Source: a virus (Duplodnaviria; Caudoviricetes). From it: a stretch of DNA of 64,000 nucleotides. The stretch is taken from positions 26,047 through 90,046 of the IMG/VR virus record IMGVR_UViG_3300005805_000059; one strand, given 5' to 3'. The position numbers and the translations under genes were made by a program. Shown one piece after another: positions 60,247 to 63,791 of this stretch (the stretch's first letter is position 1; each line of letters opens with the position of its first letter). The notes under the pieces are model-generated. The model was given only the letters and a program-made list of their open reading frames with translations. It was not told the DNA's origin and did not search any database.

Positions 60247-60350
60247 TGTGACCTAATTCACAAAAATAGTGGTGTCCTATTTGTCATAAAAAAACGGACA
60301 TATCCGACAATATGGGACATTTGAATGTCAGACCTATGCCTTATTATTGG
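60247..60350 (+). repeat. Early promoter cassette 1 (CRP-type site, GGACA boxes, TGTCAG-N10-TATTAT)
   Basis: TGTGA-CCTAAT-TCACA at 60247-62; ungapped alignment with cassette 2. Confidence 0.8.
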
Positions 60351-60379
60351 AGTGTACCTAAAAGAAAGGGGTCTCACTA

Positions 60380-60574
60380 ATGACCAAAAAATTCACCTCA
60401 CTAGAGGAACTCAAAAATTTCGTTATCGCTGAAAAAATTGCAAACTATGAAAAGCAAAAGCAAATAGAAAATAAACTATTCGCTTCACTTGCTAATGCTG
60501 AATTGCAAGAGTGTGCTAGATGTGGTGCTGATGTATCACCTACAACACACCCTGAAATTGGTTGCGACTACTAA
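60380..60574 (+). CDS. Early microprotein with CxxC
   Basis: RBS AAGAAAGGGG; CARCG. Confidence 0.65.
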   Translation: MTKKFTSLEELKNFVIAEKIANYEKQKQIENKLFASLANAELQECARCGADVSPTTHPEIGCDY

Positions 60575-60588
60575 GAAAGGTAATAACT

Positions 60589-60753
60589 ATGAATAAAAAT
60601 TTACTAGATTGTGATTGGTGCTTTGAATACTATCCGTTTGATGACCTCTACAATGTAGACTACAACGATGGTTTCTGTAATGTATTGTGTCCTCTTTGCT
60701 TGTCAATGGCACAAGAAGAAATGCCTAATAGAATAGAAAGTGTGTGGAAATAA
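60589..60753 (+). CDS. Early zinc-finger microprotein
   Basis: RBS AAGAAAGG; CDWC..CPLC. Confidence 0.65.
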   Translation: MNKNLLDCDWCFEYYPFDDLYNVDYNDGFCNVLCPLCLSMAQEEMPNRIESVWK

Positions 60754-60896
60754 TGAGAGATACAATAATGCTGTTTATCGTAATGGATGATACTAATCAA
60801 GTGTACGCAATGTACGACAATTTGCAAGACGCTGAAAATGTAATTGCAAAAGTTGGTAATGAATTTTGGTACATAGATACAGAAGAGGTATGCTAA
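60753..60896 (+). CDS. Early microprotein, 47 aa
   Basis: TAATG coupling at both ends. Confidence 0.55.
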   Translation: MRDTIMLFIVMDDTNQVYAMYDNLQDAENVIAKVGNEFWYIDTEEVC

Positions 60897-61078
60897 TGAA
60901 GAAACTAAACTACTATGAGCGTGACGCTATGCTTGAGCAATCTATTGAATTTATCAAGCAAAAGTACGGCTTCAATCGTGATAGGGCTTCTGTCGTACTT
61001 ATGGGAATGATGTTCTCTTTGATAAATGATAGTGACTTAGAACTAATACTAACTGTTGCACAAAAGGAGCGTGACTAA
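60896..61078 (+). CDS. Early hypothetical protein
   Basis: TAATG coupling; GAGG RBS. Confidence 0.6.
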   Translation: MKKLNYYERDAMLEQSIEFIKQKYGFNRDRASVVLMGMMFSLINDSDLELILTVAQKERD

Positions 61079-61290
61079 TGAACGAACTAAACCCCTATAC
61101 CCTTGAATACATAATCGCTGACCTACAAAAGAAATTGGTGAGTTACAGAAAAGACTTTGCCTTTGGATTGAGTTGGTCAGAACCTCAACGGCGTGAGCGA
61201 ATTGGGCAAATAAAATTGCTTGAATTGCTAATTGCAAACTATGAAAATAGATTGAGTGAATTGCTGATTGACCTTGACAATCAAAAATAA
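61078..61290 (+). CDS. Early hypothetical coiled-coil protein
   Basis: AAGGAG RBS; coupled. Confidence 0.6.
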   Translation: MNELNPYTLEYIIADLQKKLVSYRKDFAFGLSWSEPQRRERIGQIKLLELLIANYENRLSELLIDLDNQK

Positions 61291-61447
61291 ATTTGGAAGG
61301 TATTCTGTTTATTGTGGTAAAGTGGTTATCACAATAAGCAATTTACATTCTGCAATTGAATACGCAAAAGAATTTGACGCAACAAAAGTTGTAGATGAAA
61401 AAAATAAAATTGTGTGGCAAAATTCCAGGATCAGCAAAATAGGGTAA
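61274..61447 (+). CDS. Possible early protein, 57 aa (TTG start)
   Basis: Open frame up to the next non-coding cassette; weak RBS. Confidence 0.35.
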   Translation: MTIKNKFGRYSVYCGKVVITISNLHSAIEYAKEFDATKVVDEKNKIVWQNSRISKIG

Positions 61448-61457
61448 ATCAGACAGG

Positions 61458-61594
61458 GTGCATGCAAGTCGGGCAAATCGGACATCCAGGTGTGACTAAG
61501 ACCACAAAAATACTTATGCCCGAATTGTCATAAAAAAAGGTACATATCCGACTTTTTGGTACATTTCAATGTCAGACCTATCGCTTATTATTGC
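61458..61594 (+). repeat. Early promoter cassette 2
   Basis: GTGCATGCA, TGTGA-CTAAGA-CCACA (61491-506), TGTCAG (61570), TATTAT (61586). Confidence 0.8.
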
Positions 61595-61612
61595 CTTGTA
61601 AGAAAAAATAAA

Positions 61613-61714
61613 TAGTGTGTAGGTGAGCCTAGCAAATAAATCTGAGGTGAGCCTGATTAGAAATAATCAGCAAATAAACTCAGAGTGAGCCTAGCAAATA
61701 AACTACACACACTA
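61613..61714 (+). ncRNA. Candidate branched cis-regulatory leader RNA with three GUGAGC..CAAAUAAA units
   Basis: Three nested stems and three motif copies between promoter and RBS. Confidence 0.7.
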
Positions 61715-61732
61715 ACTAAGAAAGGTGTCACT

Positions 61733-61897
61733 ATGACAATTACAGAAATTGAAAATTCACTAGAAATTTTAGAAACCTATGAAACTACTTGGTGTGAAAT
61801 TCATAAGAATTTTATTAGCCTCGCTGAGTGTGTTGAGTGCGAGATGTCTACTTGTGCAGACTGCCTTCGTGCTTATGGTTGCGATAACTGTTACTAA
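61733..61897 (+). CDS. Early Cys-rich microprotein
   Basis: RBS AAGAAAGGTG; WCEIH..CVEC..CADC..CDNC. Confidence 0.65.
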   Translation: MTITEIENSLEILETYETTWCEIHKNFISLAECVECEMSTCADCLRAYGCDNCY

Positions 61898-61911
61898 AGA
61901 AAGGTAAAACT

Positions 61912-62073
61912 ATGAAAACTAATAATCCGTTTATGGACATTCTAAATTGTAAAGAATGCAACGGCTCAGGCTATTTTGGCTTTAGCGTTGCAGGTGTTTG
62001 GGAATTTACATTCTGCAAATGCAATCCACATAAATTAGACTTGTCAGGTTTCAAAAGGAGTGTGACTAAATGA
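61912..62073 (+). CDS. Early zinc-finger microprotein, 53 aa
   Basis: RBS AAGAAAGG; CKECNGSG..FCKC. Confidence 0.65.
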   Translation: MKTNNPFMDILNCKECNGSGYFGFSVAGVWEFTFCKCNPHKLDLSGFKRSVTK

Positions 62074-62243
62074 TGACAAGAAAAGACTATGTAACTACTG
62101 CCGAAATTCTAAACGGCAATCGCTATTTCATAACTGAAATGGTATTCATTGAAATGGTAAATGAATTTGCAGACTATTTTGCAAGTGATAATCCTAGATT
62201 CAATCGTGAAAAATTTATTTCTGCTTGCAATGGAGGTAAGTAA
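62070..62243 (+). CDS. MTRKDY/DNPRF family microprotein, copy 1
   Basis: RBS AAGGAG; paralog at 63624. Confidence 0.7.
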   Translation: MMTRKDYVTTAEILNGNRYFITEMVFIEMVNEFADYFASDNPRFNREKFISACNGGK

Positions 62244-62329
62244 TGAAACTACAATTGAAATGTGTTGAGTGTTCTCAGTGGATAGACGCTGATGAATTCG
62301 CTTGGGGACACGATTGCGAAGTGGCGTAA
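62243..62329 (+). CDS. 28-aa zinc-finger micropeptide
   Basis: GGAGG RBS; CVEC..HDC. Confidence 0.55.
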   Translation: MKLQLKCVECSQWIDADEFAWGHDCEVA

Positions 62330-62385
62330 AGCCACCTAGCAACACCCCGACACGCCCGAGGTCGGCATGCACTCAAGATCAGGCT

Positions 62386-62523
62386 GTGCATGCAAACCAG
62401 ACAAATCGGACATTCTGATGTGATAATACTCACACAAACCAATTTTGTCCTATTTGTCCTAATAAATAGGGCATTTCCGACTTTAGTGGACATTCAGATG
62501 TCAGACCCCTATGTTATTCTTAT
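62386..62523 (+). repeat. Early promoter cassette 3
   Basis: GTGCATGCA, TGTGA-TAATAC-TCACA (62419-34), TGTCAG (62499), TATTCT (62515). Confidence 0.8.
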
Positions 62524-62561
62524 CCTGTAAGTAAAGAAAGTCTCTTGAAAGGAGAACTCAG

Positions 62562-62726
62562 ATGATAGTTTCAGTTAGTGTCTATCCTAAGAACGACAAT
62601 GCAATGCCGTTCAAAATAAATTTCCCTAATCGTGATGAGGCTAATGCCTATTGCGAAGCAATAAGTAATCGTTGCGACTTCTTCGTAATGGAATTTCCTA
62701 ACGAAGTTTATCGTGAGTTAGACTAA
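62562..62726 (+). CDS. Early microprotein, 54 aa
   Basis: RBS GAAAGGAG. Confidence 0.6.
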   Translation: MIVSVSVYPKNDNAMPFKINFPNRDEANAYCEAISNRCDFFVMEFPNEVYRELD

Positions 62727-62740
62727 GAAAGGTTGAACTA

Positions 62741-62869
62741 ATGTCTAGAAATGTCTACTATCTATCCTGCGAAATTTGCAGAATTTCATCTACTCTATCG
62801 GGAGTAAAGGTTTCAGGTTCTAAAATAATCTGCAACGAATGTTATTCATCAGTATTGGAGGTCAAGTAA
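62741..62869 (+). CDS. Early zinc-finger microprotein, 42 aa
   Basis: RBS AAGAAAGG; CEIC..CNEC. Confidence 0.65.
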   Translation: MSRNVYYLSCEICRISSTLSGVKVSGSKIICNECYSSVLEVK

Positions 62870-63024
62870 TGAATAAGAAAACTAAAATTTACAATTTGCA
62901 AAAATTAATTGATAATCAAAATTGGTTGAAAGACCAATTGGCTAATCACCCAAGTGATACGCTAATGGTTGAACACTATCAACAGATGATAGACTACTAC
63001 TCAAAGAAAGTTTGGGGTAAGTGA
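62869..63024 (+). CDS. Early microprotein
   Basis: GGAGG RBS; TAATG coupling. Confidence 0.6.
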   Translation: MNKKTKIYNLQKLIDNQNWLKDQLANHPSDTLMVEHYQQMIDYYSKKVWGK

Positions 63025-63152
63025 TGGCAGTTGCAATTGCACTTTGCACATCGTTTGGATGTACAGGCATAACTGTATTTGAAGATGTGCCTTCGTGTTT
63101 CAAACCTGTTGACATTCCTTGCGAGACTTGTCAACCTGTTGCGAGAGTGTAG
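63024..63152 (+). CDS. Early Cys-rich microprotein, 42 aa
   Basis: TGATG coupling; 5 Cys incl. CETC. Confidence 0.5.
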   Translation: MAVAIALCTSFGCTGITVFEDVPSCFKPVDIPCETCQPVARV

Positions 63153-63190
63153 GGCGATCAGCCCTCACTCAATGCCCGAATTGTCCGAGT

Positions 63191-63291
63191 GTGCATGCAC
63201 CCAAAGCATGCGACCTGTGGTGTAAATCACACAAAGATGTCCGATTTGTACGCATTTTGGATTTGACTTTTTCAGAATTTTATGGCAAACT
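63191..63291 (+). promoter_or_regulatory. Early promoter cassette 4 (variant)
   Basis: Two GCATGC, TGTGG-TGTAAA-TCACA (63216-31), TTGACT-17-CAAACT with TGn. Confidence 0.6.
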
Positions 63292-63321: not shown

Positions 63322-63432
63322 ATGAAAGAACTACTAAAAAATGTAATCGAGTCCGATTGGATTTGGTACGCTACTCCAATTGTTTGGGGTCTTGTAATTG
63401 TCCTACAATTCGTGCGAATTGTTCTAAACTAA
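63322..63432 (+). CDS. 36-aa single-TM microprotein
   Basis: RBS AAGAAAGGG; hydrophobic C-half. Confidence 0.6.
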   Translation: MKELLKNVIESDWIWYATPIVWGLVIVLQFVRIVLN

Positions 63433-63447
63433 GAAAGGTAAAAACTA

Positions 63448-63624
63448 ATGTACAAAGTAAGACTAGAAACCTTCAATGGTGATGTGAGAGTAATTGAACT
63501 ACCTTCAAAGGGTGCTGTTGCTCAATTCATAAATTCCTACCCTGAAAAATTGCCAACAGGCATTAGCGTAAAAATTGCTTGTGACGCTTTGGGTGTTTCA
63601 GGTGTGTTGCGAGGTGTTGCGTAA
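63448..63624 (+). CDS. Early microprotein, 58 aa
   Basis: RBS AAGAAAGG. Confidence 0.6.
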   Translation: MYKVRLETFNGDVRVIELPSKGAVAQFINSYPEKLPTGISVKIACDALGVSGVLRGVA

Positions 63625-63791
63625 TGATGACACGCAAAGACTATGTGCGAACAGCACAAATCATAAACTCTGTTCACTTCTTTGTCAATGACAATGTGTC
63701 TCTGCACTTGATAAATAGTTTCGCTGACTATTTCCAAGCAGATAATCCTCGCTTTGATAGACAAAAATTTATTCAGGCTTGCACTAAGTAG
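63624..63791 (+). CDS. MTRKDY/DNPRF family microprotein, copy 2
   Basis: TAATG coupling; paralog of 62070..62243. Confidence 0.7.
   Translation: MMTRKDYVRTAQIINSVHFFVNDNVSLHLINSFADYFQADNPRFDRQKFIQACTK

Follow-up and report, generated by a model that had tools for sequence, protein, structure and literature searches.

The window analysed here (64,000 nucleotides) covers bases 26047-90046, up to the right end, of one virus record of 90,046 bp, IMGVR_UViG_3300005805_000059; it carries four copies of the palindrome TGTGA-N6-TCACA, perfect or with one mismatch, in front of small early genes of an uncultured lake phage. On balance we regard these palindromes, which have the look of functional regulatory elements, as binding sites for a host regulator of the CRP/GlxR family, placed as upstream activator sites on early promoters of the PafBC type; a global regulator of the host would then probably help to start the infection. 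That CRP is the binder, that it activates, and to which bacteria the host belongs we infer from sequence comparisons.

The palindrome in related lake phages

In order to avoid circularity, IMG/VR was scanned with the core promoter alone (AATGTCAGACC-N7-TAnnnT), and the sample of relatives comprises at least 120 lake-phage loci (1.08 Mb, 35-42% G+C); the counts below refer to these 120. The loci contain 254 perfect TGTGA-N6-TCACA sites versus a median of 1 and a maximum of 10 for 30 half-site permutations of the same composition, and the same arms separated by N4, N5, N7 or N8 were met 2, 0, 0 and 0 times, respectively. The palindrome is enriched approximately 200-fold in the relatives, where it occurs about once per 4 kb of early region.

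The location of the sites is equally constrained. The core promoter TGTC[AG]G-N10-TAnnnT follows 30-90 nt downstream of 206 of the 254 sites, and about 42% of the 549 non-redundant promoters left after removal of near-duplicates carry a site with at most one mismatch. Measured from the start of the site to the start of TGTC, the distances form sharp peaks at 34, 44, 54 and 64-65 nt; 206 of 255 sites (81%) fall within 1 nt of this 10-bp ladder versus 30% expected (Rayleigh p ~1e-50, period 10-10.25), and a minor class at 49 nt stems mostly from abutting pairs (65 and 49 nt), as their second members. In none of the 549 promoters does a site begin in the interval from -20 to +44 about the box, hence core promoter, start site and leader are never overlapped. 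This phased upstream placement is characteristic not of an operator but of an activator that works from upstream on a single face of the helix.

Assuming that the -10 hexamer occupies -12 to -7, the ladder centres lie at about -54.5, -64.5, -74.5 and -84.5. A CRP/GlxR-family regulator of the host would occupy the palindromes at the very first promoters of the phage, where they would serve as class I-like upstream activator sites for the host RNA polymerase: a CRP dimer, bound on one face and centred near one of these four positions in the relatives, could touch the transcription complex and stimulate initiation at the promoters heading the early units.

The preliminary description of this DNA had made its case depend on the site being conserved beyond the rest of its cassette, and such conservation was found. 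By blastn the relatives' loci cannot be aligned to the cassettes of the window, only short gene fragments matching, and the palindrome is kept in these phages, recurring in non-homologous cassettes of more than 70 loci with its arms preserved while spacers and flanks vary. Such a pattern, together with the strict N6 and the phasing, makes it highly improbable that the palindromes are passive parts of duplicated cassettes, that is, recombination or duplication scars of the PeSL kind with no binding protein of their own; what that explanation can claim for itself is the paralogy of cassettes 1-3 in the window, described below, and their inherited spacing.

The composite pattern of palindrome and promoter was also met in genome contigs, with six exact matches (L123-L128) in metagenome-assembled genomes labelled Proteobacteria, Bacteroidia, Beijerinckiaceae, cyanobacterium and Actinomycetaceae. 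The simplest reading is that phage contigs were mis-binned into lake genomes, and the matches give no information on the host.

Palindromes and promoters of the phage early region

The phage genome falls in the class of complete records with direct terminal repeats, the ~100 bases at its start recurring at its end; it has a G+C content of 37% and carries portal, protease and capsid genes, the portal sharing ~48% identity with those of Streptomyces phages. WhiB is regarded as an actinophage marker (PMC10202952), and a WhiB gene, at genome 17096-17374, marks the phage as a predicted actinophage. Among named phages the region had no BLAST match, and no relatives were found through two neighbouring proteins; the phage WhiB had no match in the genome contigs, and the GMP-reductase-like gene of the phage, tried as a host marker, had none at E <= 1e-60 in 151 actinobacterial genomes. 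Since the distant cultured relatives (Streptomyces Stanwilliamsviridae, portal 48% identical) contain 1, 0 and 0 perfect sites, the palindrome was not inherited from that wider family.

The palindromes are situated in the right-hand end of the record, in which the direction of transcription changes to rightward, and the early block runs on across the record ends into genome 1-12.6 kb. The core of the early promoters is TGTCAGAC(C): about 17 copies of TGTCAGAC-N8-TAnnnT are spread from genome 86.4 kb to 12.6 kb across the ends, each with a ribosome-binding site and a small gene 30-50 nt downstream. The palindrome accompanies only 6 of these ~17 promoters, namely the five rightward cassettes that come first and, among the leftward promoters, the one lying furthest upstream, which are the heads of the rightward and leftward early units; the earlier proposal that each early operon responds to the regulator was too wide. 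Outside the window two further sites are linked to promoters, at genome 161 (80 nt in front of a TGTCAGAC box) and at genome 10315 (44 nt in front of a leftward one). One more perfect palindrome, the fifth, is TGTGACACTTATCACA at genome 20266-20281; it is also outside the window, lies within a leftward coding sequence with no TGTCAG box nearby and may be a chance or unrelated site.

Within the window the preliminary description had reported perfect palindromes at 60247 and 62419 and palindromes with one mismatch at 61491 and 63216, and all four were recovered there; likewise TGTCAGAC starts at 60326, 61570 and 62499, that is 79, 79 and 80 nt after the start of palindromes 1-3, as had been counted. 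The elements are the following.

60247-60262, no strand: palindrome 1, perfect TGTGA-N6-TCACA, TGTGACCTAATTCACA; centre at about -99.5 relative to the predicted start of promoter 1
60301-60308, plus strand: pseudo-box 1, TATCCGAC, 54 nt after palindrome 1, between GGACAT repeats; the real box follows 25 nt downstream
60326-60347, plus strand: core promoter 1, TGTCAGAC-N8-TATTAT, PafBC/RecA-NDp geometry; first ATG of the operon at 60380
61476-61485, plus strand: AATCGGACAT box directly upstream of palindrome 2, the second recurrent motif of the intergenic blocks
61491-61506, no strand: palindrome 2, TGTGACTAAGACCACA, one mismatch (CCACA arm)
61545-61552, plus strand: pseudo-box 2, TATCCGAC, 54 nt after palindrome 2
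61570-61591, plus strand: core promoter 2, TGTCAGAC-N8-TATTAT; long leader, then ATG at 61733
62070-62243 and 63624-63791: paralogues of a micro-protein MMTRKDYV...DNPRF, 55-57 amino acids, 56% identical
62404-62413, plus strand: AATCGGACAT box upstream of palindrome 3
62419-62434, no strand: palindrome 3, TGTGATAATACTCACA, perfect
62474-62481, plus strand: pseudo-box 3, TTTCCGAC, 55 nt after palindrome 3
62499-62520, plus strand: core promoter 3, TGTCAGAC-N8-TATTCT; ATG at 62562
63216-63231, no strand: palindrome 4, TGTGGTGTAAATCACA, one mismatch (TGTGG arm); degenerate box 54 nt on, centre at about -74.5
63237-63246, minus strand: ATGTCCGATT, inverted copy of the AATCGGACAT box, directly downstream of palindrome 4
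63263-63291, plus strand: promoter 4, TTGACT followed by TTTCAGAA-N8-CAAACT, degenerate box and weak -10; ATG at 63322

Cassette 4 lacks the TGTCAG box and has in its place the degenerate TTTCAGAA-N8-CAAACT, with TTGACT as a -35-like hexamer. Throughout the window 7 sites with at most one mismatch were counted versus 4.4 expected, which is not significant alone; four of them cluster within 3 kb versus ~0.2 expected (Poisson estimate ~7e-5), and the whole genome has 5 perfect sites versus ~0.1 expected from base composition. A chance origin of the palindromes was rejected on the genome-wide counts and the counts in the relatives.

The gapless alignment of cassettes 1 and 2 extends over 117 nt (78% identity), slightly further than the ~105 nt reported earlier; cassette 3 aligns in the same family at 62%, and between the first genes of cassettes 1 and 2 the identity is 37%. 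By these alignments cassettes 1-3 are paralogous duplicates, and because of this their equal 79/79/80 spacing is not independent evidence. The four cassettes with palindromes 1-3 and genome 161 can be aligned to each other and are of one shared origin, the distance of 79-80 nt being inherited through cassette duplication.

This distance sets the four cassettes apart. Palindrome 4 (54 nt) and the genome 10315 site (44 nt) stand on the ladder used by the relatives; the 79-80 nt of palindromes 1-3 and genome 161 belong to a class with only 1-3 members among them. A sequence T(A/T)TCCGAC, enclosed by two GGACAT repeats spaced 19 nt apart, is found 54, 54 and 55 nt after palindromes 1-3, at a distance that belongs to the ladder; the working box follows 25 nt downstream. 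This pseudo-box may be a relic core element, and cassettes 1-3 probably descend from a promoter of the 54-nt class which acquired a new core 25 nt downstream and was duplicated thereafter; the old box would have decayed once the new core was there. A weaker, in-phase second palindrome was sought in cassettes 1-3, and none with at most 2 mismatches was found. In these cassettes CRP may still act from about -100, perhaps together with a protein on the GGACAT or AATCGGACAT boxes.

As regards the core promoter itself, the RecA-NDp consensus of Gamulin et al. 2004 is said to read tTGTCRgtg-N8-TAnnnT. Its geometry is matched by TGTCAGAC-N8-TAnnnT at 60326, 61570 and 62499 and at ~14 more positions of the genome; the phage box reads ACC where the consensus has GTG, and GTG is common in the relatives. 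The extended -10 element TGnTAnnnT is conserved in the phage promoters, which have no good -35. Furthermore, TGTCRGTG-N8-TAnnnT occurs 34 times versus 2 in the control in five streamlined actinobacterial genomes. The early promoters of the phage are predicted to be of the PafBC/RecA-NDp type and may depend on PafBC.

Other motifs recur around the palindromes. The AATCGGACAT / ATGTCCGATT box stands 5-13 bp from them in either orientation, with a further copy at genome 187-196. Paired GCATGC palindromes (often TGCATGC) are found between the preceding stop codon and the CRP-type palindrome (window 61460, 62365, 62388, 63193 and 63206; genome 132 and 151); no T-runs follow these pairs, and they were not called as terminators. 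Upstream of the relatives' promoters the 8-mers AATGTCCG and TGTCCGAT are ~11-12-fold enriched, and CCCTGGAA is ~10-fold enriched in the relatives. In the promoters of the 44-, 49- and 54-nt classes of the relatives (L001-L120) a DnaA-box-like TTATCCACA or CTGTGGAAAACCC, followed by CCCTGGAAATT, often stands directly upstream of the palindrome, and GCCCGCAA, CGTGTCG and TGAGCGTCTCA are further GC-rich modules that recur in these phages.

Candidate proteins for the palindrome

The weight matrix of the sites is TGTGA-t-n-T-A-n-a-TCACA, with a preferred central T-A. G4 is present in 100% and C13 in 98% of 252 sites, values somewhat inflated by the selection at no more than one arm mismatch. This choice is the CRP-type one, the paralogue Cmr preferring 4C/13G (PMC5758884). 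The attribution of the palindrome to the consensus of CRP and GlxR, already made in the preliminary description, is the best-supported reading, since arms, N6 spacing, G4/C13 and central T-A all match (PMC5758884).

Neither an HTH_Crp_2 nor a cNMP-binding domain is encoded in the complete phage genome, and no recognisable DNA-binding domain was detected among the ~40 early proteins scanned. An 80-amino-acid open reading frame at genome 12742-12984, outside the window and behind the promoter at genome 12566, has a sub-threshold match to Clr5, which is helix-turn-helix-like (E = 2.5e-4); it is the sole hint of a DNA-binding protein among the early reading frames scanned.

On the bacterial side, of 151 genomes sampled from the actinobacterial class 143 have a CRP orthologue at E <= 1e-20, a tally which takes in seven unpublished genomes (G011, G019, G028, G034, G036, G040 and G047); none of the other claims depends on these seven. 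Five genomes (G043, G073, G099, G122 and G144), each a single contig of 1.38-1.50 Mb with a local G+C of 45-49%, appear by size and composition to be Nanopelagicales-like and were used as a host-like set. Each of them has one CRP (E = 4e-78 to M. tuberculosis Rv3676), and its recognition helix SRETVNKALADFA (RETVNK) equals that of M. tuberculosis CRP over the DNA-contacting Arg/Glu/Lys (PMC5758884).

These CRPs also keep the cAMP-pocket motif FGELS...RTS. Neither a class III cyclase (PF00211) nor a CYTH protein (PF01928) was found in the five genomes, which may not be those of the host, or in the phage, and M. tuberculosis CRP binds DNA without cAMP (PMC5758884). The proposed link of phage takeover to cAMP and to the carbon status of the host is therefore doubtful, and so is a cAMP dependence of the predicted CRP sites.

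Several observations weigh against the assignment to host CRP. The five host-like genomes contain one perfect site in 7.3 Mb; with at most one mismatch they contain 69 versus 70 in the control, which is no enrichment, and no composite promoter of CRP box and TGTCRG was found in them, so the phage architecture was not copied from a host promoter seen there. Palindromes 1-3, with centres at about -100, are approximately half a turn off the relatives' ladder. Even on the ladder the centres, calculated from a predicted start site, are ~3 bp off the E. coli class I series. The -10 elements are equally good with and without a palindrome (4.91 versus 4.87 matches to TATAAT), and the idea that the palindrome compensates for a weak core promoter was rejected on these values. 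Additionally, tandem sites that abut at a distance of 16 bp would leave little room for two bent CRP-DNA complexes. Finally, the family of the MMTRKDYV micro-protein is present in 52 of 58 palindrome-rich loci and in 1 of 8 palindrome-free loci.

The tandem sites, which would suit a small protein better, the co-occurrence of the micro-protein and the missing promoter architecture in the host-like genomes could all be explained if a dimeric DNA-binding protein of the phage recognised the palindrome, an early product that would activate or time the head promoters at a site copying, or competing with, the CRP consensus. We consider this unlikely. Apart from the sub-threshold Clr5 match, the scanned early proteins offer no recognisable DNA-binding domain; the promoters driven by the sites are the very first ones, active before the phage has made any protein; and for an unrelated fold a 10-of-10 match to the CRP consensus with N6 would be a coincidence. 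The micro-protein, found in 57 of 121 early-region loci, with the first ~46 nt of its gene 85-90% identical across otherwise diverged phages, gave a confident AlphaFold model of a three-helix bundle (pLDDT 93.5), which is generic and had no specific, DNA-binding or helix-turn-helix match in the PDB, though the protein may still bind DNA; among named phages only a weak match to a Pelagibacter phage was obtained. The phages rich in palindromes form a single related group with early micro-proteins in common, and the co-occurrence is confounded by this shared ancestry.

The scarcity of perfect sites in the host-like chromosomes, set against 5 in the 90 kb of the phage and the density in the relatives' early region, could also mean that the palindromes are mainly a high-affinity sponge, which would draw the CRP of the host off its regulon while the phage DNA is replicated, with effects on promoters, if any, being secondary. 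A sponge needs no fixed position, yet 81% of the sites keep to the ladder and none lies elsewhere in promoter or leader, and there are only few sites per genome; titration as the main function is therefore improbable in our view.

Implications and comparison with known systems

We tentatively suggest a wider model, with less confidence than the reading of the palindromes as CRP sites: this group of lake actinophages may start infection from promoters that stack two host activators, with a PafBC-type box in place of the -35 and a perfect CRP box 1-4 helical turns upstream, in hosts that keep CRP without a recognisable adenylate cyclase. If this is true, the phage exploits a global regulator that is independent of cAMP and always present, and its perfect sites, virtually absent from the host chromosomes, may outcompete the host regulon. 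The most abundant freshwater bacteria are nearly uncultivable; for early transcription in their phages a conserved, phased CRP-type box on PafBC-type promoters provides a testable model of two host activators and one 16-bp site, which would explain how the programme of these phages starts and in what way infection could be gated by the physiology of the host. A further question is what CRP would respond to in streamlined actinobacteria with no apparent cyclase. The papers searched contained no description of a CRP/GlxR box on actinophage early promoters and no phage target of CRP/GlxR regulators.

Compared with the regulons of M. tuberculosis CRP (Rv3676) and C. glutamicum GlxR (PMC5758884; PDB 3d0s, 3i54, 4cyd), the phage sites share the consensus including G4/C13, and the orthologue of the host-like genomes has identical DNA-contacting residues. 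The known chromosomal sites, however, are mostly imperfect whereas those of the phage are perfect or near-perfect, and no cyclase was found in the host-like genomes.

The PafBC-dependent RecA-NDp promoters of mycobacteria (PMC6789036, PMC8223512) have their counterpart in the TGTCAG box, the 8-nt gap and TAnnnT of the phage, the relatives often having TGTCAGTGG; the phage differs in adding the upstream CRP-type box, a combination not found in the five host-like genomes. The repeated early-promoter cassettes between small early genes, being duplicated modules, resemble the PeSL repeats of T4, from which they differ in having no stem-loop or terminator: terminators and terminator-like hairpins were sought between the cassettes and none was found.

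At class I CRP-dependent promoters of E. coli, of which lac is the type, CAP is centred at -61.5, -71.5, -82.5 or -92.5. The phage promoters differ from these in their core, which is of the PafBC/RecA-NDp type with an extended -10 and no -35, and in their setting, an early region of a phage in an actinobacterial host, where cassettes 1-3 stand at about -100 and off phase; spacing by whole turns was found for the phage group and palindrome 4 and not for palindromes 1-3. What they have in common with the E. coli promoters is a 16-bp TGTGA-N6-TCACA placed upstream, in steps of one helical turn, with the core never overlapped.

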